Assembly (NCBI RefSeq): GCF_036568125.1
Contig: NZ_DATCTF010000006.1
Location: 44,082 to 108,081 of the forward strand
Direction: 5' to 3'
Source: Magnetovibrio sp.
GTDB taxonomy: Bacteria; Pseudomonadota; Alphaproteobacteria; Rhodospirillales; Magnetovibrionaceae
DNA: 64,000 nt
The notes beneath the pieces are model-generated. The model ran no database searches and was not told where the DNA came from. It was given only the letters and a program-made list of their open reading frames with translations. Position 1 is the first letter of the stretch; each line of letters begins with the position of its first letter. Positions 1,209 to 11,502 of the stretch are shown here, piece after piece. The position numbers were made by a program, and so were the translations under genes.

Positions 1209-3002
1209 TCAAGCCGGCAATTGATTTTGCCGTCCGGCTTGAATGCGCTCAGCGATGATCTCGGCAATACGCGCCGCACCGCGCCCATCCACAGTATCTC
1301 GTGAGGTTTTCGACATGTCTTGCAGGCGGGACGGATCGTTGAGCAACTCTGCGCAGGTGCGCGCCAGTCGTGATGCATCGTCGGGTGTGACGCGCCCGAG
1401 GTTGATCCCCAGTTTCGCCTGCTCGAACACAGATGCGGATTGGGCATGGTCGTCGCTGAGGCACAAATAGATCGCGGGTAGCCCCATGGCCGCCATCTCG
1501 GCCGCCGTGACGCCGAAGGAAACAATCCCGATGTCGGATGCGGCCATCAAGCCCGCAAGGTCTTGCGGTGCGTCGTGAACGTGCACCGCATGGCGATGGC
1601 TTTCAACGATTTGGGCAAGAGCCGCCCGGTCCGTGAACAAGGGGCCCGCCACGACGTCGATATCGATCGTCTCCGTCACATCATTCAAGGCTTGCAAAGC
1701 CATACGGGTGAAGCCCGCCGGATCGCTCGCACCGCAACTGACGAGGGCGTGGGGATGCGGGTTTTGCGGAGGGATGGTTTTGTGGCTGAACGGATCGCGT
1801 AAAATCAGCCACTCCCATCCGGCTTTGATGTCCGGGCGACCGGGACGGCCATTCAGCGCCAGGGTGCGCGGCGTGGGCGGGCAGAACACCAAGTCGGCAT
1901 GTTCCAGACGCGGGCCGATGTCGTCGATCAGCACGCACAGAACGCCGCTGTCGCGCCATAGATCCAAGGCGTCGCCGCTGAGATCGGTGCGGATGTCCAG
2001 CACCAAGGCGTGCGCACCCTTGTCGCGGATCAGGGCGTCAAGCCATGCGGCTTCTTCCACCCCGGACGGCGCCAGTTGATAGGGAAAGCGCGCGTCTTCG
2101 ATCATCGCCACGCCCTGTTCGCCGCGCATCACGGCGAAGTGAACGGCGGTGGCGTAGCGTTCGCGCAATTGCGTCGCCAACGCCACCATGCGAGAGATGT
2201 GGCCGAGGCCGATGGCGGCGTCGCCGTCGCATCGGAAGATGACGTTGCGCGAACTCTCGTACGCTTGCTTTTGACGCACATGGCTGTTGAGGGCGCGCAA
2301 ATCCGGGTCGTTGTGCAGCAAGGTGGCGACATCGTCCATGTCGATTTCGCCCGGCGCGGCCCCGGTGCGGGCGTACAAGGTGCGCAGCAACAATAAGTCT
2401 GCCGGGGTGTCGAGCCACAAGCGAACGTGATCGAAAATATGATTCTCAGGCGCGGGAATGCCGACCATTCTGCCAAGGTTGGGATTCACGTTCAGGTAGC
2501 CAAAAACGTGCTCCTGAGCCACGGGATTGTCGGCGCCTTCGTCGATGATGCGCTGGAACAAGTCGCGGGTGAAGGGTTCGAACCCGCCGTGCAAGGTCAC
2601 GACATGGGGATTCCAGGTGCTGTAATCGCCTTGCTCTTTGATCAGAACCTCGATCAGGTTGTCGATGACTTGAGGGTCGAGCATCGGGCAGTCGGATGTG
2701 ACGCGCACGATGTAATCCGGATTGTGCAGGTCCACGGCTTCGGCAAAACGCGACAGGACATTGTCGCGCGAGCCGCGCACGACGTCGACGCCGTGCTCAT
2801 GGGCGTAATCGACCAACACATCGTCGCAACTGTCCGTGGTGGTGGCGAGAATGATTTGGTTGATCCGAGTTGATTTCTTGAGCCGGTGAAAGACATGCCA
2901 AAGCACCGGCTTGCCAGCCAGATCGAGCATGATTTTTCCCGGTAGACGCGACGAGCTCATGCGGGCTTGAATGATGGCCGCGATTTTGGGGTTATGTGTC
3001 AT
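1209..3002 (-). CDS. fusion protein: SpsF/NeuA-family cytidylyltransferase domain plus PseG-like UDP-sugar hydrolase domain
   Basis: N-terminal KIAAIIQARMSSSRLPGKIMLDLAGKPVL...VRGSRDNVLSRF resembles the SpsF/CTP_transf_3 family. The C-terminal half starts NVIFRCDGDAAIGLGHISRMVALATQL, resembling the PseG N-terminus. ATG at 3002 is preferred over the track start at 3020. Confidence 0.7.
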   Translation of the reverse strand: MTHNPKIAAIIQARMSSSRLPGKIMLDLAGKPVLWHVFHRLKKSTRINQIILATTTDSCDDVLVDYAHEHGVDVVRGSRDNVLSRFAEAVDLHNPDYIVRVTSDCPMLDPQVIDNLIEVLIKEQGDYSTWNPHVVTLHGGFEPFTRDLFQRIIDEGADNPVAQEHVFGYLNVNPNLGRMVGIPAPENHIFDHVRLWLDTPADLLLLRTLYARTGAAPGEIDMDDVATLLHNDPDLRALNSHVRQKQAYESSRNVIFRCDGDAAIGLGHISRMVALATQLRERYATAVHFAVMRGEQGVAMIEDARFPYQLAPSGVEEAAWLDALIRDKGAHALVLDIRTDLSGDALDLWRDSGVLCVLIDDIGPRLEHADLVFCPPTPRTLALNGRPGRPDIKAGWEWLILRDPFSHKTIPPQNPHPHALVSCGASDPAGFTRMALQALNDVTETIDIDVVAGPLFTDRAALAQIVESHRHAVHVHDAPQDLAGLMAASDIGIVSFGVTAAEMAAMGLPAIYLCLSDDHAQSASVFEQAKLGINLGRVTPDDASRLARTCAELLNDPSRLQDMSKTSRDTVDGRGAARIAEIIAERIQAGRQNQLPA

Positions 3003-3891
3003 CGCTGTCCCCGAAATCACGTATCGATTTCAGCGGTCGCAACCCATCGTCGGGATCCGCCCGCCAGTCGCGATCGGCCATTTCGGACGGGGCGGGTTGC
3101 TTGATCCCGTCGCCATCGGCCTTGAAGCCGGTCTCGATATTCTCGATCACGGCGGCGATCTGGTCGGGTAGCCAGCAGTGTCCGGCGGAAAACTCTTCGC
3201 CTTCGCCATCCAAGTCGAGGTGGTACTCGACCACAACGGCGCCAAAGCGATGCACCGCGCGCGCGATGATGCCGGGATTGACCGAGTGGTCGGATAGTCC
3301 GGTCGGCACGCCAAAGGTGTTCCGCAGGGTTTCCAACGCCGAGAGGTTCATCTGTTCGGGCGGGGTCGGGTAGCTGGAGACACAATGCAAGAGCGTCAGC
3401 TCGACACATCCCGCGCTGTGGATTACGTCCCTGGCGTGGGCGATTTCGTTCATGGTCGCCATCCCCGTCGATAGGACGACGGGCTTGCGCGTGTTGGCGC
3501 AGGCGATCAACAGGTCGTCCCACAACAGTTCGTAGGACGCGATTTTGTAAAAATCGACATAAGGTTCCAACTCGCCGACGGCATCCAGGTAAAACGGGGT
3601 GCACGAAAACAGCATGCCGAGATCGTGCGCCTTTTGCGCCAACTTAGGGATGAAGCCGACAGGTAGTTCCCAGTCGGCGCGGGCACGATGCGCGGGGCTT
3701 TTTTTCAACACCTCGGGGGCGAACAGTTCGTTGATACGAAACAACTGAAATTTCACCGCACCGCTGCCGGTGCGGTGTGCCGCCTCGATAAAGGCGTAGC
3801 AGCGTTCGAGGTCGCGATGGTGATTGCTGGACACTTCGGCAATGAAAACCGGTGCGCCAGCGCCGGCGAACAGGCCTTGGGGTTCAGTCAT
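2992..3891 (-). CDS. NeuB-family nonulosonic acid synthase (PseI/SpsE-like), short form
   Basis: FIAEVSSNHHRDLERCYAFIEAAHRTGSGAVKFQLF and GLSDHS motifs of the NeuB barrel. The start overlaps the pseB stop by 8 nt. Confidence 0.8.
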   Translation of the reverse strand: MTEPQGLFAGAGAPVFIAEVSSNHHRDLERCYAFIEAAHRTGSGAVKFQLFRINELFAPEVLKKSPAHRARADWELPVGFIPKLAQKAHDLGMLFSCTPFYLDAVGELEPYVDFYKIASYELLWDDLLIACANTRKPVVLSTGMATMNEIAHARDVIHSAGCVELTLLHCVSSYPTPPEQMNLSALETLRNTFGVPTGLSDHSVNPGIIARAVHRFGAVVVEYHLDLDGEGEEFSAGHCWLPDQIAAVIENIETGFKADGDGIKQPAPSEMADRDWRADPDDGLRPLKSIRDFGDSDDT

Positions 3892-4888
3892 CGTGGTGTT
3901 CCCGAATCATCGCCAACAGATCGGCATGGCTGGCCCATTCAGGATTGGTGTCGCTAGCGTAGGAAAAATCTTCGGCGACCGGGGTGCCGAGATTGAGCGT
4001 TTCTTGCGCGCCTTCCCAAAAGCTGATGGGGGGCTTGATGACGTAGCCGTTATCAACCTCGACGGTGTTGCGCGCGTCATCGGAGGTGATCATGATTTCG
4101 TGCAGTTTTTCACCGGGGCGGACGCCGACGATTTTGTGCGGTAAGTCGGGTGCCATGGCGTGGGCAAGATCGATGATGCGCATGGACGGGATTTTAGGCA
4201 CGAACAGTTCGCCGCCGAGCATGCGGTTCAAGCAATCGGTGACGAAATCGATGCCTTGGCGCAAGGTGATCCAAAATCGCGTCATGCGCTCGTCGGTGAT
4301 CGGCAGGTGATCCGCGCCTTCGTCGATGAGCTTTTGAAAAAAGGGAATAACGCTGCCGCGCGAACCCACCACGTTGCCGTACCGCACCACCGAAAAACGC
4401 GTGCCCAAAGGCCCCGCTAAGTTGTTGCCGGCGATGAAGATCTTGTCGGATGCCAGCTTGGTCGCGCCATAAAGATTGATCGGGTTGGCGGCCTTGTCGG
4501 TGGACAGGGCGATGACTTTTGAGACTTCGGCGCGCAACGCAGCTTGAACGACGTTTTCCGCGCCAATGATGTTGGTGGCGACGAACTCAAAAGGGTTGTA
4601 TTCGGCTGCGGGAACTTGTTTCAGCGCGGCGGCGTGGATGACGATGTCGACCCCGCGCAATGCCATGGTCAGGCGGTCGCGGTCACGTACGTCGCCGATG
4701 AAATAGCGCATTTCGTCTCGCCCTGCGATGCCGGGGGCATTACTCATTTCGAATTGCTTGAGTTCGTCGCGGGAATAGACGATCACGCGTTTGGCGTGGC
4801 CTTCGGCTAAAATCTGGCGAACCATTTTTTGACCGAACGATCCTGTGCCGCCGGTGATGAGAACGGACTTGCCTTTAAAAATATCCAT
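3884..4888 (-). CDS. pseB: UDP-N-acetylglucosamine 4,6-dehydratase (inverting), PseB/FlaA1/FlmA type
   Basis: GKSVLITGGTGSFG, VIVYSRDELKQ, RYFIGDVRD, IHAAALKQVPAAEYNP and ALSTDKAANPINLYGATKLASDK closely follow the H. pylori FlaA1/PseB pattern. Confidence 0.9.
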   Translation of the reverse strand: MDIFKGKSVLITGGTGSFGQKMVRQILAEGHAKRVIVYSRDELKQFEMSNAPGIAGRDEMRYFIGDVRDRDRLTMALRGVDIVIHAAALKQVPAAEYNPFEFVATNIIGAENVVQAALRAEVSKVIALSTDKAANPINLYGATKLASDKIFIAGNNLAGPLGTRFSVVRYGNVVGSRGSVIPFFQKLIDEGADHLPITDERMTRFWITLRQGIDFVTDCLNRMLGGELFVPKIPSMRIIDLAHAMAPDLPHKIVGVRPGEKLHEIMITSDDARNTVEVDNGYVIKPPISFWEGAQETLNLGTPVAEDFSYASDTNPEWASHADLLAMIREHHDD

Positions 4889-4914
4889 GAATTCTTCCTG
4901 GGATGTTTAAAGGG

Positions 4915-5400
4915 TTAGGGGGCTTCTCCTTGAAGCTGTTTAGGCTCATCCGCGGCATCGTCTTCGGGCAGGAGTTCGTTTTCCGCCAAGAAGGCTTTCA
5001 GCTGTTCGCTGAATTTATGCAGCACGTTCGATTCATATTTGATCAGGTTCTGCGCCTCTTTCAGGCCCTTGTATATGCGGTCGTTGTGCACGTGGTCGCG
5101 CACCTTGATGGCAATGTCCAAGGCGTTGGGGCAGGCGGCGATGAACTCGTTGAGGCGTTGTTCGAAGCGTGCGAGGCAGGCCTCACGTTCCGCCGGATCA
5201 AGTAGGATGTATGCGCCCTGAAGTTCGAAATAGACACGCGAAGCAGGCGTTTGCGCATCCTCTTGGGAAAGGACTTCTTTTTCCCGCAAGATGGCCGACT
5301 TGTTGTGAACGAGAATCTTCGTGTTGCCGCCGATGTTTTCAAGAACGGAGCCGTTGATAATCAGCTTGTCACCGGATTTGAAGTCGATAAGAAGAGGCAC
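4915..5400 (-). CDS. flbT: flagellar biosynthesis repressor FlbT
   Basis: N-terminus MPLLIDFKSGDKLIINGSVLENIGGNTKILVHNKSAILREKEVLSQEDAQTPASRVYF is the characteristic FlbT pattern. Located near flaF. Confidence 0.85.
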   Translation of the reverse strand: MPLLIDFKSGDKLIINGSVLENIGGNTKILVHNKSAILREKEVLSQEDAQTPASRVYFELQGAYILLDPAEREACLARFEQRLNEFIAACPNALDIAIKVRDHVHNDRIYKGLKEAQNLIKYESNVLHKFSEQLKAFLAENELLPEDDAADEPKQLQGEAP

Positions 5401-5462
5401 GTCTGATCCTAAAAGTATGTGTGAGGCTAATTTCGCAGGAACGCTTGCGACCAGTGTCTGAT

Positions 5463-6332
5463 TTAAACAAACAAATTCATCACGGACCCGGGCGGGATGT
5501 CCCAGCCCTGAACCGATTTATTCATTTCTTCAACCGAACTGATCCGCGCTTCGAACGAGAGAGAGATCACGCGCAAGATGTTGCCGTAGTTGGCCTTGAT
5601 GTCTTCGATTTGCGCTTCACGTTTTTGCAGTTCGATAGAGGACAACTGGGTCATGTCGGACAGTTTGGTGGCCAACGTCGCGGACAAATTCAAAGAGGTC
5701 TGCGATGCGTTTTCAAGCGTTGTCGTGGTGACGTCGTAAGCTGTATCGATGAGGCCGCTTAAGGTGTTCAAGTCATCGAGGATTTGCCGATTGCCGTTGG
5801 TTGGCGTTGTGGTGCCTGCCGGGTCGACGACCCCCTCTACAGGGCTCATGGCCTTCAGCGTTTCGTACATGTTTTTGACATCGCGAACCACATAGGGCGT
5901 CGAAATGTCGGGATGCACGGACAGCAGCAAAGCCGACGTTTCTTCGATCAGCGCGTCGCGTTTGGCGTTCAGCGCGGTGATTTCATCGGCAGTGAGGTTG
6001 GTGTTGTCATCGACGGCGGTGAACGCGGAAATGGCCTCGTAGACGTTCGTCTGCATGCTGGCCAAGCGCGTCTGGTTGGCGCGCATGTCGAAGGCGAAGC
6101 TGTCGATCAGCGCCTTGTTCTTTTCGAGTTTTCCGTAGTCACGTTCCAACGCGGCAAGGCGGCGCGGGGTGTCGTCATTGCGGATGACGGTATCGATTTC
6201 GCTGTTGATACGGCGAATGACGGTGTTTTGGATTTGGTTGAATTGCTGCTCAAAACCAAAGCGAAAGCTCGCCGCCGAGACACGCGTCAGGGTCGTCCCA
6301 ATATTGGTATCGGTGGCGTTTGGTATGGGCAT
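5463..6332 (-). CDS. hypothetical helical protein (289 aa) between flaF and flbT; possible very divergent flagellin-like or exported axial-family protein
   Basis: Clean ORF with GGAGAA Shine-Dalgarno about 8 nt upstream of the ATG. Helical N- and C-terminal thirds flank a Thr/Ser-rich centre. No canonical flagellin N-terminal motif is recognisable. Confidence 0.6.
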   Translation of the reverse strand: MPIPNATDTNIGTTLTRVSAASFRFGFEQQFNQIQNTVIRRINSEIDTVIRNDDTPRRLAALERDYGKLEKNKALIDSFAFDMRANQTRLASMQTNVYEAISAFTAVDDNTNLTADEITALNAKRDALIEETSALLLSVHPDISTPYVVRDVKNMYETLKAMSPVEGVVDPAGTTTPTNGNRQILDDLNTLSGLIDTAYDVTTTTLENASQTSLNLSATLATKLSDMTQLSSIELQKREAQIEDIKANYGNILRVISLSFEARISSVEEMNKSVQGWDIPPGSVMNLFV

Positions 6333-6470
6333 TCTTCCCGTTCTCCACTACGAGCACCACGTTGGCGCCCATGTCGCCCTTCTGGGCATTTCCTGTGTAA
6401 CGTGAAAACTATACCATTATTGCGCAAATAGAACAAGCGAGAGGGGCGCGCGGGGCCGCGAAATGGCGGC

Positions 6471-6959
6471 TTACGCGTTTGTGTTCAAGGTCCCACCGCT
6501 GTTGGCGGGCAAGGGTTCTTCAGATTGGCTTTTCTGGGTCTGGTTGGGTGCGTTTTGCGGCGCGTTGTCCAAGGTGTTGTTGAGGCCTTCCAGAAGGCCC
6601 TGGGCGATGTTGCGGTTTATATCGATCAGGGTTTTGATCTGCTCGGGATTCAACTCGCTCATGCACACAATGGTGTGATTGTCGACGAATTGGCACAGCG
6701 TCAGCATGTTTTGGCGCAGATCGAACGGAACGGGATTGGTTTCCAACGTCAGTTCAGCCTGAAAAATGGTCCACAGCCGCCAGTTTAGGCGGATCGCATC
6801 GCGGAGTTCTCGCCGTGCGCCGGGTTGCGCCAAATCGTCGGCGCTTGCGACCTTCTCCAGTGCCGTGGCAATGCGCCGGGCGGCTTCGGTCAGAGCCCAA
6901 GCCTCGGAATGGCTGGGGGAACCTGCCGGAGGTACGGAAGAATAGGGCGATGTTGACAT
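6471..6959 (-). CDS. flaF: flagellar biosynthesis regulator FlaF
   Basis: SEAWALTEAARRI...AIRLNWRLWTIFQAEL...PFDLRQNMLTLCQFV matches the FlaF family signature. Confidence 0.85.
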   Translation of the reverse strand: MSTSPYSSVPPAGSPSHSEAWALTEAARRIATALEKVASADDLAQPGARRELRDAIRLNWRLWTIFQAELTLETNPVPFDLRQNMLTLCQFVDNHTIVCMSELNPEQIKTLIDINRNIAQGLLEGLNNTLDNAPQNAPNQTQKSQSEEPLPANSGGTLNTNA

Positions 6960-7079
6960 TTGTGCTCCGCTCGTTTGCTCTTAGACTTTGGCTTGCCGCA
7001 TCCGGACTGGTAAATCACGATAGAGTCTACTATGGGGGGATGTCCAGGCTCAACCCCCCCTCCATTTATCGCGCAATCC

Positions 7080-9233
7080 TTACATGAACTTGATCAGGCT
7101 CAAATCGCGAATGCGCGCGAGGGTCTGATACGATGCTTCCAAGGCCCGCTGGTCGTCCAAAAGTTGGGTGATCGTTTCCAACGGGTCGGCATTTTCGATG
7201 TTGGCGATCTGGGTTTCGAGAAACCCCGTGTAGGTTTTGTGACTTTCCGTGGTCTGGCTGATCAGAACCTGCTGATAGCCGGACGTGATCAACAAGTCCT
7301 TGATGCTGCCGCTCAACTCGGTGCCGTAGGGGGGAGTGCCCCCGGCGGTTCCGTCGTACGCGCTTTCCAAAAGATAGATCGCTTCCGTCGCGCGCGAGGC
7401 GTTTTGATCCAGACCTCCTTCGGTTCCAAATTTGCCTTGGGCGATGATGGCCATGGCGCGAATGGCTTTTTCGAACGCGGGATCCAAACCGTTGAGGTCG
7501 AAGTTCAGGCTCCGGCTTTCGTCGACGCGGTGGGTGATCGTCAGGTCATCGCCAGCGTAATAGGTTTGCGATGAGATCGTGCCGTCGGCGTTGCTGATGA
7601 CGGCGGTGCTGGCTACTGCCGGTTCCGCCGTCAGCGTTTCGCGTACGTTGATCGACGATCCGTCGGAAGCGACGGAGGTCACGGTGAAGGTTGCGTTGTT
7701 GCTGGCGGTGCCGGCAATTGTGATGCTCATCCCCGCCTTGACGTTGGAATACGTTCCGGCCGCTGCCGTGATGGTGTCGTCGCCGGTATTGACGGTAAAG
7801 GTCTGGTTGCCGGCGAAGTTCAGTGTCGGCGTGGCGGCTGTGCCTTCGTCCGTCAATTTTTTCGGTACGATGTCGACCGTGTCGCCGTTGGCGCCAACGG
7901 CGGCGACGGTATAGGTGCCATTGTTTTGTGCGGTACCGGAAATGGTGAAGGTCGACCCAACGGTGAGAGCGCTCAAGGCGTTGGTGCCAATGCTGGCGGC
8001 GCCGACCGTGATGCGGTTGGTGGCGCGATCGAACGAAAGGTCCGTAAAGTTTGCCGAAGTCAGAATCGTGTTGGCTGCCGTGACGTTGGCGGTGACTGGC
8101 GTGATGTCAATTGTGTTGGCCACGGCGCCGCCGGCTTCGGTGGTGCCCACCGCAAGGGTGTAAGGCACACCCGGTGCTTTGGATACCAAACTGATTCCAT
8201 CGGCGCCGCTTGCGGTCGCCGTAACGAGAGAATTGATCGTGGCATTCGCGTTGATTTGGCTGATCAAGCTATCGCGCAAAGCCACGACGGTGCCGACGCC
8301 GGCGTCTGTTGCGGTGATCGCCGTGCCATTGATCGTCACGGTGTAGGCATCGCCGGCGACGATCGATCCGCCCAATGTCACTTTGTCGGCTTGGGCGACA
8401 TTGGTTGCCGTGTTGGGGCTTATGGTGAGGACGGAGCTGGCGTTGTTGCTTTCGTTGGTCAACATACGCGTCTTGACCGTGATCCCGGTTCCGCCCCCGA
8501 GCACGCTCTCAACCGTGTATGTACCGTTGTTGCTTGTCGTGCCGGTGATTTCGATGGTCGAACCGACGGTGACGTTGGCGAATTGAGCCGTGGTGGCGGT
8601 GATGGTGCCGACACCCGTGGTCGCGGTGTTGCCGTCACCGTCTTGCTGAAATGTCAGCCAGTTGGTTTTACCGGTGGAATCACTGTTGATGGAAAAGTTT
8701 TCGATATGCGCATCGCGCGTCGTGGGGTAGCTGACAGCGGCGCCATCGAAGGTCGCTTGGAAATCGTCCAACGTGGTCAGGTTCATGTCCATCGGAATGG
8801 TGTCGGTGCGTCCACCGGCAAATACATAACGGCCCCCGACGGAGGTGTTGAGGTATGCCTGCAACGACAACAACGAGTTAAAGGCCTGCTGTTGAATATC
8901 GCGAATGTTGATCTGGGTTTTGCCCGCCTGGCTGTTGAAGGTTTTGAGCGATTTTTTAAAATCGTTGATGTTGGTCTGGATGCCGTCCATAGCGGTGGTG
9001 CTGATGTCCAGGCGAACATTCATGATTTCGTTGTTCTTCATGTAACCAGCGATGCTGTCGCGGGTGGCTTCCAGGCCTAAAAGATACTGGGCGCTCTTGG
9101 AAATGCCTTTGTAGTTCGGCGAGACTTTTTCCGACGTCACCTGGTACTGCAGATCGATGAGACGGTTCTGCGTCTTGCCCAGGTAACTCATCAATTGGTT
9201 GCTAGTCGCTAAGTTTGCAATCCGGTCAGCCAT
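7080..9233 (-). CDS. flgL: flagellar hook-associated protein 3 (FlgL), expanded 717-aa form with internal repeats
   Basis: Flagellin-like N-terminus (LMSYLGKTQNRLIDLQYQVTSEKV) and C-terminus (QRALEASYQTLARIRDLSLIKFM). Lies directly downstream of flgK. Confidence 0.8.
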   Translation of the reverse strand: MADRIANLATSNQLMSYLGKTQNRLIDLQYQVTSEKVSPNYKGISKSAQYLLGLEATRDSIAGYMKNNEIMNVRLDISTTAMDGIQTNINDFKKSLKTFNSQAGKTQINIRDIQQQAFNSLLSLQAYLNTSVGGRYVFAGGRTDTIPMDMNLTTLDDFQATFDGAAVSYPTTRDAHIENFSINSDSTGKTNWLTFQQDGDGNTATTGVGTITATTAQFANVTVGSTIEITGTTSNNGTYTVESVLGGGTGITVKTRMLTNESNNASSVLTISPNTATNVAQADKVTLGGSIVAGDAYTVTINGTAITATDAGVGTVVALRDSLISQINANATINSLVTATASGADGISLVSKAPGVPYTLAVGTTEAGGAVANTIDITPVTANVTAANTILTSANFTDLSFDRATNRITVGAASIGTNALSALTVGSTFTISGTAQNNGTYTVAAVGANGDTVDIVPKKLTDEGTAATPTLNFAGNQTFTVNTGDDTITAAAGTYSNVKAGMSITIAGTASNNATFTVTSVASDGSSINVRETLTAEPAVASTAVISNADGTISSQTYYAGDDLTITHRVDESRSLNFDLNGLDPAFEKAIRAMAIIAQGKFGTEGGLDQNASRATEAIYLLESAYDGTAGGTPPYGTELSGSIKDLLITSGYQQVLISQTTESHKTYTGFLETQIANIENADPLETITQLLDDQRALEASYQTLARIRDLSLIKFM
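7641..8615 (-). repeat. three copies of a module of about 45 aa with an NNGTYTV core inside FlgL
   Basis: VTVGSTIEITGTTSNNGTYTVESV, LTVGSTFTISGTAQNNGTYTVAAV and VKAGMSITIAGTASNNATFTVTSV, at residues about 207-255, 414-458 and 487-531. Confidence 0.7.
8079..8399 (-). repeat. FlgL copy of the VAQxD...GDxYxVTINGT...INA...VTA module of about 100 aa (contains a flagellin-hook IN-type motif)
   Basis: VAQADKVTLGGSIVAGDAYTVTINGTAITAT...LRDSLISQINANATINSLVTATASGADGISL aligns by eye with the FlgE modules. Confidence 0.7.
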
Positions 9234-9258: not shown

Positions 9259-11502
9259 TTACCGGATCACACGTTCGAGTGAATCGAACATGGCCTGGAT
9301 GACGGATATGACGCGGGCAGCGGCGTTGTAGCCTTGCTCAAACAAGATCAGATTGGACATTTCCTCGTCCAGGTTGACGCCCCTGAAGGTATCGGATTTG
9401 GTTTTAAGGCTGTTGCTCAAATCCTCTTGATAGGTGCGCTGGCTGTCGTTCAATTCCGCCAACGTGGCGTTGTTGGTGAGGATGCTCGTGGACCGCGATA
9501 CGAAGGTCATGCTGGTAGAAGACAGTCCGCCGGCGGCATCGAAGGTATTGGTCGTGGCGAACATTTGCGACATGCTTTTGATCAGCGTATTGTCGCCTTT
9601 GCTGAGGAAATATTCACCGGACGCCCCCTTGTTCGCATCCCATTGAATGGCGCCGCGGGTGACCAGACTGGGTGAAGAAATAATGTCTTCGCGAACGCGG
9701 ATTTGCTCGCTGACGCGCACATCGGCGCTGTGCAGGGAGGTGTCGGAAATAAACGTATTGGCGGCGGCCTGGGTCACCGTAAAGGCGTTGCCGTTTTGAC
9801 TGGAAATGCGCAGGCGTTGGCCTGAGCCGTCCGGGATGATGGTGGCGGTGACGCCCGCGGCGGTGGCTGCATTGATGCTGGCGGCGATGGTGGTCAGGCT
9901 GTCGCCGTTGTTGACGGTGACGTTGGTAGACGTGGTGCCGTTATAGATGGTCAAGGTCGCGGCGGTCGATGCGTAGCTGGTTGACATCACCCCGGTTTCC
10001 CAGATGTTGTCGACCACATCATCGACGAACAAATCGTTGAGGCCGAAGAAATTTGAAAAGCCGCTGACCGTTTCGTCGGCCGTGCCGTCACCGTTGGCGT
10101 CGAACTGGATGGTAGCGTTGGCCGCCGTGCTACCGACCGGAGCAGGCACGGTGCCGGCGGTGTTGACCTCATCGCGCAAGGCGATGTTGTAGGTCGTCGA
10201 ATTGAGGTTAATGTTGAGTTTTCCGGTGGTGCTGCTGACCGCAACGGTGGCGTTGGCGGTGCCATTTTGACGCAGCCAATCTTGCATGGTCGCAGCGACC
10301 TCGGCGATATTCCACGGACCGTTCGCGGCCGATGCGCCGGAACCGTAAGACGCAGAAGCCATGATTGCTTGAACCGTGGTGGTGGTGTGCTGATTTCCGG
10401 TGGAATCGAACAGCGTGATGCGCGTGTCGGAATTGTTGCCCATGGTGATGGTTTGCTCACCGGCGATGGGCACGGTTTTGGCCGTACCGGTGTTGATGAA
10501 TGCGCGCGTGCCGCTCATCGTCGCGGAGCCGGGAAAGCCGGAACCTTGGTTGTGGATCAGGTTTACGGCGTCGCGCAGTTCCGCGGCGAATTCGTCGAGT
10601 TGACTTTGCAGATCGGCCAAAGTGCCGTCGCGCAGATCGATCAAGCCTTTGAGTTTGCCGTCGCGCACTTCGTCGGTGATGTCGTTCGCAGCGGTTTCGA
10701 TACCGATGTAGATACCGTTGAAATCACCTTCGGCATGGGTGGTGGTCGATGCTGCGGTGCTTGCCGGTAAGTGCGAGATGGTCGGCGAGGAGTTGTCGAC
10801 CAAGGTGCGTCCGGCGCGGGTGAACACCACCACGTCGCCGTCGCCGCGATAGAAATAAGAAATGTCGATATAGCCGGCCAGCTCATCCAGCTTGGCATCA
10901 CGCTTGTCGCGCAGGTCTGTGACATCCGCGCTTGTGGATGAGTTCTGGATAATCTTGTTGTTGATGTCGGAAAGTTCGCTGGCCAGGGTATTGATGGTAC
11001 TGGTCACAGCCGCAATTTCGGTATCGGCCTGAACGCGCAGTTCCTGCACGGTGGAGCTCATCTGGGTCAGCTTGTTTGCGACCTCTTTGGCTTGGCGGAC
11101 GAATTCGCCTTGTTCCAAAGACTGATCCGGAGCCAGGGTCAGGGCTTCCATGGATTTGCCGAATTCGGTCATGATGTGCGCGATGGAGGTGTTGTCCCCC
11201 GGTGCGCCGAACAAATCCTGCAAGCGGCTGAAATAACTGGATTGAGCGTCGTGTTGGTTGAAAGCGCTCAGCTCAAGACGCAGGCTTTTGAGCAAGCCTT
11301 CGTCGACAGCGCGTGTCACTTGGGAAAGCTGCACGCCCGCGCCGGTTCCGGCGACGACGCGCTGTTCCATATTCACGATCTTGCGCGAATAATCGGGCGA
11401 GTTCACGTTGGCAACGTTCTGTGCCACCGCGTCCAAAGCGCTTTGGTTGACGAGCAAGCCGCTCTGCGCGGTTCTCAAGGCTAGGGTCAAACTACCGGAC
11501 AT
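9259..11502 (-). CDS. flgK: flagellar hook-associated protein 1 (FlgK)
   Basis: N-terminus LALRTAQSGLLVNQSALDAVAQNVANVNSPDYSRK and C-terminus GVNLDEEMSNLILFEQGYNAAARVISVIQAMFDSL. Confidence 0.9.
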   Translation of the reverse strand: MSGSLTLALRTAQSGLLVNQSALDAVAQNVANVNSPDYSRKIVNMEQRVVAGTGAGVQLSQVTRAVDEGLLKSLRLELSAFNQHDAQSSYFSRLQDLFGAPGDNTSIAHIMTEFGKSMEALTLAPDQSLEQGEFVRQAKEVANKLTQMSSTVQELRVQADTEIAAVTSTINTLASELSDINNKIIQNSSTSADVTDLRDKRDAKLDELAGYIDISYFYRGDGDVVVFTRAGRTLVDNSSPTISHLPASTAASTTTHAEGDFNGIYIGIETAANDITDEVRDGKLKGLIDLRDGTLADLQSQLDEFAAELRDAVNLIHNQGSGFPGSATMSGTRAFINTGTAKTVPIAGEQTITMGNNSDTRITLFDSTGNQHTTTTVQAIMASASYGSGASAANGPWNIAEVAATMQDWLRQNGTANATVAVSSTTGKLNINLNSTTYNIALRDEVNTAGTVPAPVGSTAANATIQFDANGDGTADETVSGFSNFFGLNDLFVDDVVDNIWETGVMSTSYASTAATLTIYNGTTSTNVTVNNGDSLTTIAASINAATAAGVTATIIPDGSGQRLRISSQNGNAFTVTQAAANTFISDTSLHSADVRVSEQIRVREDIISSPSLVTRGAIQWDANKGASGEYFLSKGDNTLIKSMSQMFATTNTFDAAGGLSSTSMTFVSRSTSILTNNATLAELNDSQRTYQEDLSNSLKTKSDTFRGVNLDEEMSNLILFEQGYNAAARVISVIQAMFDSLERVIR

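Follow-up and report, generated by a model that had tools for sequence, protein, structure and literature searches.

In Caulobacter, FlaF is a secretion chaperone that binds all flagellins, and FlbT together with the specialised flagellin FljJ represses flagellin translation until FljJ is secreted (PMC7591256). In Rhodobacterales, which lack FliD, a gene beside flaF-flbT encodes CP1, without which flagellin is secreted but no filament is assembled (PMC11974857), and GlfM, an 89-aa four-helix bundle related to FliS/FliT, is a cis-encoded specificity factor of Maf-2 (bioRxiv 10.1101/2023.12.03.569772). Here, we analyzed a 64,000-nt stretch of Magnetovibrio sp. DNA (the window), in which an open reading frame (ORF) of 289 aa, hereafter X (5463..6332, minus strand), separates flaF from flbT. 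A preliminary description of the sequence had pointed to this ORF between the two genes; its coordinates proved exact and both flanking genes were confirmed by Pfam. X is probably an unrecognised flagellar part or a secreted flagellar regulator in Magnetovibrio-like marine bacteria. We give roughly even chances to the more specific proposal that it has a flagellin fold, is secreted as a client of FlaF, and becomes a minor or proximal component of the flagellum.

AlphaFold2 was run twice, with 25 sequences (pLDDT 80.9) and with 72 sequences (pLDDT 90.9, pTM 0.69), and returned the same architecture. Residues 1-10 of X are predicted to be disordered and are followed by helices at 11-51, 55-102/105, and 115-133, by an irregular segment with short strands (134-180), by a single helix at 181-274 and, beyond a Pro-Gly break, by a five-residue terminal helix. 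In order and length, these predicted helices correspond to those of a flagellin devoid of outer domains, with 134-180 as the hairpin segment, and can be read as ND0-like (11-51), ND1a-like (55-105), ND1b-like (115-133), and CD1+CD0-like (181-274). A Foldseek comparison of both models with 350,542 PDB chains ranked Caulobacter FljK, FljM, and FljN first, with full-length alignments. The best matches of the two models were 271-aa Caulobacter flagellins (E ~2-4e-4, TM 0.43-0.46), and the top five of the second model spanned E-values of 1.9e-4 to 2.5e-3 and TM-scores of 0.40-0.46. Next came the flagellin cores of E. coli, Roseburia, Bacillus, Shewanella, and Leptospira, and the FlgL proteins of Salmonella and Vibrio. 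The flagellin-type layout that the preliminary description had read from the sequence is thus supported by the predicted D0-D1 hairpin and by the top Foldseek matches of both models. Its helical ends were recovered, but the postulated Thr/Ser-rich centre was not: the Thr-rich DVTTTT...ATK segment is placed in the long C-terminal helix, and the irregular part of the protein is confined to 134-180.

Several points weigh against a flagellin-like identity. The fold E-values and TM-scores are modest, unrelated long helical hairpins (dynein stalk, SMC, IpaD, OspC) score just a little worse (E ~1e-2), and a conserved Pro-Pro-Gly-Ser breaks the C-terminal helix before the last five residues, unlike in flagellin CD0. 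In addition, no sequence homology of X to flagellins or FlgL was detected with Pfam, NCBIfam, PDB profiles, or hhalign. Because the scores are modest and unrelated long hairpins also match, the assignment of X as a D0-D1 helical hairpin of the flagellin/FlgL type is likely but short of proven.

Sequence searches against known families were uniformly negative. Pfam and NCBIfam gave no family match for X, 24 homologs, or 10 long variants, apart from weak coiled-coil noise. Flagellin_N (PF00669) and Flagellin_C (PF00700) were not found at E<=1 in X and the 24 homologs, nor at E<=10 in the Magnetovibrio blakemorei ortholog, and the long variants likewise did not match them; the reported lack of a flagellin signature in X therefore extends to its homologs. 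PDB searches with 25- and 72-sequence profiles returned no flagellin, and their hits to designed helical bundles, spike HR regions, and ACE were compositional noise. With hhalign, the 72-sequence X family scored probabilities of 3% against 20 flagellins from X-bearing lineages, 0.8% against a local FlgL family alignment, and 0.6% against a DUF1217 protein from a flaF-flbT cluster. X matched neither the FlgL models TIGR02550 and PRK06008 in NCBIfam nor FliD_N/FliD_C in Pfam, and Pfam scans of X and its homologs found neither DUF1217 (PF06748) nor the flagellin-associated domain DUF1522. Since Pfam, NCBIfam, PDB profiles, and hhalign all failed to connect them, X is, as judged from its sequence, outside every flagellin-type family and is no detectable member of the flagellin, FlgL, DUF1217, or DUF1522 families. 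The profile and fold searches did not assign X to an unrelated family either, an outcome that the preliminary description had set against its own proposal.

The closest structural counterparts of X are the Caulobacter crescentus flagellins FljK/L/M/N (271-273 aa; PDB 6xky, 6xl0, 8uxn, 9cef), which resemble it in length, in the predicted order and lengths of the helices, in the absence of cysteine, in richness in Thr, Ser, Asn, and Ala, and in the conservation of both termini. They also belong to a FlaF/FlbT-type system with pseudaminic-type glycosylation genes. X differs from them in having no detectable sequence similarity, in carrying the N-terminal motif FExQFNQIQNTxIxRxNxEI in place of the flagellin LSSGxRIN block, in the Pro-Gly break before the last five residues, and in accepting outer-domain inserts between predicted helices 2 and 3 besides the usual D2 site. 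FlgL/HAP3 (PDB 9go6, 9u7y, 3pwx) shares with X the D0-D1 fold matches and a beta module present in both the long X variants and the FlgL of the window, and the X gene is two positions after flgL. However, the TM-scores with FlgL/HAP3 (0.24-0.33) are below those with flagellins, hhalign was negative, and the true flgL slot after flgK is held by a 717-aa ORF, not by X. X thus represents an unnamed family that is an orphan by sequence, has motifs of its own and a fixed partnership with flaF, and falls, as far as the predicted fold goes, within the flagellin/HAP3-fold axial kind.

A word-indexed search retrieved 51 X homologs at E<=1e-3, with 30-80% identity, and a "hypothetical protein" of M. blakemorei is a homolog at 72% identity. 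An exhaustive profile search extended the family to 170 clusters at 50% identity, nearly all of 265-295 aa. A single-motif scan, which could miss divergent members, found X in five GTDB species genomes, and on this basis only some Rhodospirillales-type lineages seem to carry the family. No match came from tblastn of X on the plasmids searched. Nearly invariant in it are the N-terminal block FRxGFExQFNQIQNTxIxRINSEI, and, towards the C-terminus, the motifs ISLSFE and PGSVMNLF. Conservation peaks at the N-terminal helix (residues 21-50), at residues 241-260, and at the tail (281-289), blocks that, in the models, would build a D0-type coiled coil as in axial proteins. Cysteine is absent from 72 diverse members (20,379 residues), while W and H account for 0.1% and 0.6%. 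It is also absent from FlgK, FlgL, the FlgE hook protein, and FlgI of the window, but occurs once or twice in each of the cytoplasmic FlaF, FlbT, and FlgN, and up to eight times in neighbouring enzymes. In these sequences, the cysteine-free make-up of X is that of flagellar export substrates. Across the same loci, the divergence of X outpaces that of FlaF and FlbT and is close to that of FlgL, as exemplified by locus L009 (identities of 55% for X, 76% for FlaF, 77% for FlbT, and 61% for FlgL).

A few long members of 362-662 aa retain both ends and hold beta-rich modules, which are located between predicted helices 2 and 3 or before the predicted C-terminal helix. If the flagellin-like packing is correct, both insertion sites would map to the D1-like bundle at its tip. 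In the 662-aa member (P0233), the modules share homology with the FlgL repeats of the window (BLASTP E 3e-8, 27% over 184 aa); such outer modules in common are to be expected of surface-exposed flagellar proteins. The 717-aa FlgL-like protein contains several copies of a beta module of ~60-100 aa with the pattern G.T..I.G....NG.Y.V..V..DG..I.V, and the same module is inserted up to approximately four times in the long X members P0233, P0234, and P0232. It resembles a mobile outer-domain cassette that flagellar surface proteins of the lineage have in common.

In the nearly invariant loop DDDTNLTADE, between predicted helices 2 and 3, lies a D-x-N-x-T motif (window 5997-6011; residues 108-112), the extended sequon of bacterial N-glycosylation. 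Among the GT41 enzymes are cytoplasmic N-glycosyltransferases, and X is directly followed by a TPR-GT41 enzyme in loci L002, L007, L010, and L031. The occurrence of this sequon in X beside GT41 loci may be a coincidence. The motif is not retained in the most distant X members, and the same site carries the inserts of the long variants. In the metagenome-assembled genome nSSYDbin4 (L005 8360-10840), the annotated X homolog has just 230 aa (P0040), flaF and X are ~1.2 kb apart, and the FlgL match is split in two. This points to an assembly or frameshift problem, or to an insertion, at this locus.

Gene order was compared in 27 distinct loci, namely the window, 4 GTDB genomes, 14 JGI metagenome contigs, and 8 further contigs; a fifth GTDB locus was left out, its contig being already among the metagenome loci. 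In 22 of the 27 loci, flaF directly adjoins X, with the order flgL-flaF-X in 21, including the most remote long variants (flgL-like, flaF, X), and X-flaF in one more. X is directly followed by flbT in 18 loci, so that its absence from the flaF-flbT interval of relatives, which the preliminary description had also counted against itself, was not what we found. In the remaining five loci X comes first in its operon, preceding TPR-GT41 (FlmG-like) and Maf in four and Maf in L001; maf is accordingly one gene apart from X in four loci and adjoins it in one. In L001 and L002, a canonical flagellin gene and flbT come next; the remaining three contigs end at Maf. Pse genes adjoin X in L002, L007, and L031. 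Because all 27 loci lie there, the X family is confined to a late-flagellar and flagellin-glycosylation neighbourhood, with FlaF as its most constant partner. The linkage to flaF first noted in the window is thus a property of the whole family.

Canonical flagellin genes coexist with X in its relatives. Distant relatives carry one in the same locus, and a relative with 62% identity carries one on the contig of X, with locus tags 28 genes apart. In the relative with 80% identity, the gene is located ~35 kb from X, within an fliK-flgD-flgE / TPR-GT41 - Maf - flagellin region. Judging from how that contig is oriented, the expected flagellin position lies ~30 kb beyond the end of the window. Consistent with the preliminary description, tblastn found no canonical flagellin in the 64-kb window, nor Maf, TPR-GT41, or FliK; this absence nevertheless reflects the window edges, since close relatives have a flagellin gene ~35 kb away. 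X is ruled out as the main flagellin and does not stand in for a missing one; because relatives also hold an ordinary flagellin in the same locus or contig, X is an additional protein and not the main filament subunit. The 383-aa canonical flagellin of the 80% relative, the closest one, belongs to an operon of TPR-GT41, Maf, and flagellin (L015 5902-11152) that is divergent from fliK-flgD-flgE. Two different putative flagellin glycosyltransferases are encoded there in tandem, and GH57 and further sugar-modification genes lie downstream.

The coordinates of X, its leader elements, and its neighbours are listed in Table 1.

Table 1. Features of the X locus, in window coordinates.
Feature	Positions	Strand	Remarks
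X	5463..6332	-	ATG start, 289 aa; unnamed flagellin-fold family (fold predicted)
Putative leader hairpin 2	6350..6372	-	~10-bp stem just 5' of the Shine-Dalgarno sequence; pairing in 75% of cells among relatives
Putative leader hairpin 1	6376..6387	-	GCCC-AGAA-GGGC; pairs in 11/11 relatives, AGAA loop invariant
Promoter-like element	6408..6438	-	GCTTGTTC-N17-TATAGT (GCTTGT-N-TTTGC-N-TATAGT); recognised by conservation alone; sole match to the pattern in the window
flaF	6471..6959	-	Pfam PF07309, E 1.8e-21; upstream of X
flgL-like gene	7080..9233	-	Hook-filament junction protein, 717 aa, repeated beta modules; occupies the flgL slot after flgK and takes FlgL-type matches
flgK	9259..11502	-	Hook-associated protein 1; upstream of the flgL-like gene
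flbT	4915..5400	-	Post-transcriptional flagellin repressor; Pfam PF07378, E 6.7e-31; begins 62 nt 3' of X
Nonulosonic (pseudaminic-type) acid genes	1209..4888	-	Packed right behind flbT
PseB-like dehydratase	3884-4888	-	26-nt gap after flbT
NeuB	2992-3891	-	Overlaps the PseB-like gene at 3884-3891
Cytidylyltransferase fusion	1209-3020	-	603 aa; overlaps the NeuB gene at 2992-3020

The gap between flaF and X measures 138 nt and is conserved in 11 relatives. The promoter-like element lies within it, and a close relative has a similar element, CGCTTGTG-N17-TAGAAT, ahead of its canonical flagellin gene. A sigma-70 scan flagged no consensus promoter for X, the 6408-6438 element included. If transcription starts just past this element, the X leader would be ~75 nt long; the ~130 nt proposed in the preliminary description fits the intergenic distance but not this putative start. 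The ribosome-binding site of X (GGAG/GGGAAG) is 4-14 nt 5' of the start codon. Folding of the 83 nt that lead from the -10 box to the ATG was better than that of shuffled sequences (z -2.7). Among the 11 relatives, hairpin 1 shows one compensatory C-G to U-A change, and four pairs of hairpin 2 are changed on both sides. Overall, 82.5% of the cells of the two hairpins pair, compared to 37-53% in slid controls; their pair counts do not rise above the shuffle control (48 of 500). Because this last control was not exceeded, the two-hairpin leader structure is plausible but short of proven, and a regulated, structured leader on X is likewise plausible. An Rfam search of 4800-7200 returned nothing relevant. 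Both X and the canonical flagellin genes of relatives have leaders with a hairpin that includes AGAA(A) in its loop: GCCC-AGAA-GGGC for X (6376-6387), CAGCAGG-ATAGAAA-CCTGCTTG in L015 (9943-9963), and GGGGT-TAGAAA-ACCCC in L002 (12901-12933). These loops could be a shared recognition element or could have arisen by chance.

No terminators were predicted between flaF, X, and flbT in the sigma-70/terminator scan. Because the downstream genes are separated by gaps of 62 nt and 26 nt or overlap, flbT and the nonulosonic-acid genes probably share one transcript with X, originating at the X promoter. In the last of them, the 603-aa fusion ORF, the Pfam match is confined to the N-terminal CTP_transf_3 domain. 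Farther 5' of X, the same strand encodes the 717-aa FlgL-like protein, FlgK, FlgN, FlgI, and a hook-type protein. A second copy of X was not found in the 64-kb window by tblastn.

Chaperone genes usually adjoin the genes of their clients. From the conservation, synteny, predicted fold, composition, and insertion-tolerant loops of X, we infer a pathway of FlaF binding, export, incorporation, and possible glycosylation. On this reading, X would be an axial-type protein with the D0-D1 fold of minimal flagellins and FlgL and a sequence too diverged to be recognised as such. X would be expressed from its own conserved promoter with a structured leader and bound by neighbour-encoded FlaF as its secretion chaperone. 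The flagellar type III apparatus would then export it once the hook and junction are complete, and the conserved terminal helices would insert it as a minor structural subunit, e.g., in the hook-proximal filament or the junction zone. There it would sit beside the canonical, glycosylated flagellin encoded elsewhere, and the Maf or FlmG-like enzymes encoded behind X in other lineages might glycosylate it as well.

X may instead be mainly regulatory, acting as an analogue of FljJ: it would bind FlbT in the cytoplasm and co-repress translation of the structural flagellin, and its FlaF-dependent secretion through the finished hook-basal body would lift the repression. We regard this account, the main alternative, as possible but rather unlikely. 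Like X, FljJ is flagellin-shaped, is encoded beside flbT/flaF, and coexists with structural flagellins, and an FlbT-FljJ-FlaF mechanism has been described in Caulobacter (PMC7591256). The position of X directly between flaF and flbT in 18 loci, with flbT within 6 kb of X in Maf-type loci, would suit such a role, as would its predicted flagellin-like fold, its export-type composition, and the similar promoter-like elements and hairpin leaders upstream of X and of the flagellin gene of a relative. However, FljJ is an ordinary, canonical flagellin by sequence and X is not; the several FlgL-type outer domains of the long X variants would be needless in a pure cytoplasmic co-repressor; and the most conserved neighbour of X is flaF, not flbT. 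FljJ is also incorporated next to the hook, so that a role of this kind and that of a secreted FlaF client are not exclusive.

A cytoplasmic accessory function in flagellin glycosylation or secretion, with X as an adaptor presenting flagellin to Maf or to TPR-GT41 (FlmG-like) in the way that GlfM serves Maf-2, appears distinctly unlikely. GlfM does show that cis-encoded helical Maf adaptors exist (bioRxiv 10.1101/2023.12.03.569772), and both proteins are helical and encoded in flagellin-glycosylation clusters, GlfM by maf and X ahead of TPR-GT41 and/or Maf as first gene of the operon in 5 of the 27 loci, two of which (L001 and L002) continue with flagellin and flbT. In the window, moreover, X heads flbT-pseB-neuB-pseF/G. 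Yet GlfM is an 89-aa four-helix bundle, whereas X has 289 aa and a predicted flagellin-like topology, and the lack of cysteine and the FlgL-type surface modules of the family point to a protein outside the cell. The GT41-Maf-flagellin operon of the Magnetovibrio clade is ~35 kb away from X and has no copy of X next to it. Identity of X with GlfM is ruled out by size and by the long-hairpin topology of the predicted fold.

To our knowledge, FliD is missing from many FlaF/FlbT-type alphaproteobacterial systems, and X could be a filament cap or assembly factor that replaces it, although we consider this very unlikely. An unknown assembly factor is invoked in the Caulobacter model (PMC7591256), the CP1 phenotype shows that such factors exist beside flaF-flbT (PMC11974857), and X looks exported and flagellin-shaped. 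Nonetheless, no FliD chain was among the top 50 fold matches of the X models, X is without plate-forming beta domains, and its family seems restricted, having been seen in five GTDB species genomes by the single-motif scan, which could miss divergent members. The Sulfitobacter gene at the CP1 position encodes a DUF1217 protein unrelated to X. This DUF1217 (PF06748) protein resembles X in size (~275 aa) and in the location of its gene right after flaF-flbT, but it is unrelated by Pfam and hhalign and is a positional analogue alone; if this gene is CP1, as we take it to be, CP1 is ruled out as a relative of X. On plasmid pSpoCB-1 of Sulfitobacter sp. CB2047 (Roseobacteraceae; L017 4594-6254), flaF, flbT, and the gene for this 274-aa protein are in tandem, matching the flaF-flbT-CP1 part of the Rhodobacterales cluster, which suggests that CP1 is a DUF1217 protein. 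A broader formulation, in which X assembles or caps the filament or forms another new structural element (e.g., a proximal adaptor segment), with FlaF as its dedicated chaperone, for FlaF/FlbT-type alphaproteobacterial flagella that have glycosylated flagellin and no FliD/FliS/FliT module, has a slim chance of being correct. Finally, that X is a generic coiled-coil protein without direct flagellar role, placed here by lineage-specific accident, is hardly credible: its sequence matches are indeed weak ones to unrelated coiled-coil families, but 27 of 27 loci are late-flagellar or flagellin-glycosylation clusters, down to 30% identity.

The axial proteins of the flagellum are generally regarded as a closed, well-catalogued set of rod, hook, FlgK, FlgL, flagellin, and FliD. 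If X is a secreted FlaF client of flagellin fold, the flagellum of a marine alphaproteobacterial lineage, to which the magnetotactic Magnetovibrio belongs, would gain a component. For the Caulobacter-type system, X would be a candidate for what FlaF/FlbT sense in species without an FljJ-type flagellin and a candidate helper for the assembly of glycosylated flagellin where FliD is absent. Should X prove to be an assembly or cap factor, it would found a new class of axial proteins sharing only its fold with flagellin. For annotation, ~170 clusters of "hypothetical proteins" could get a name.

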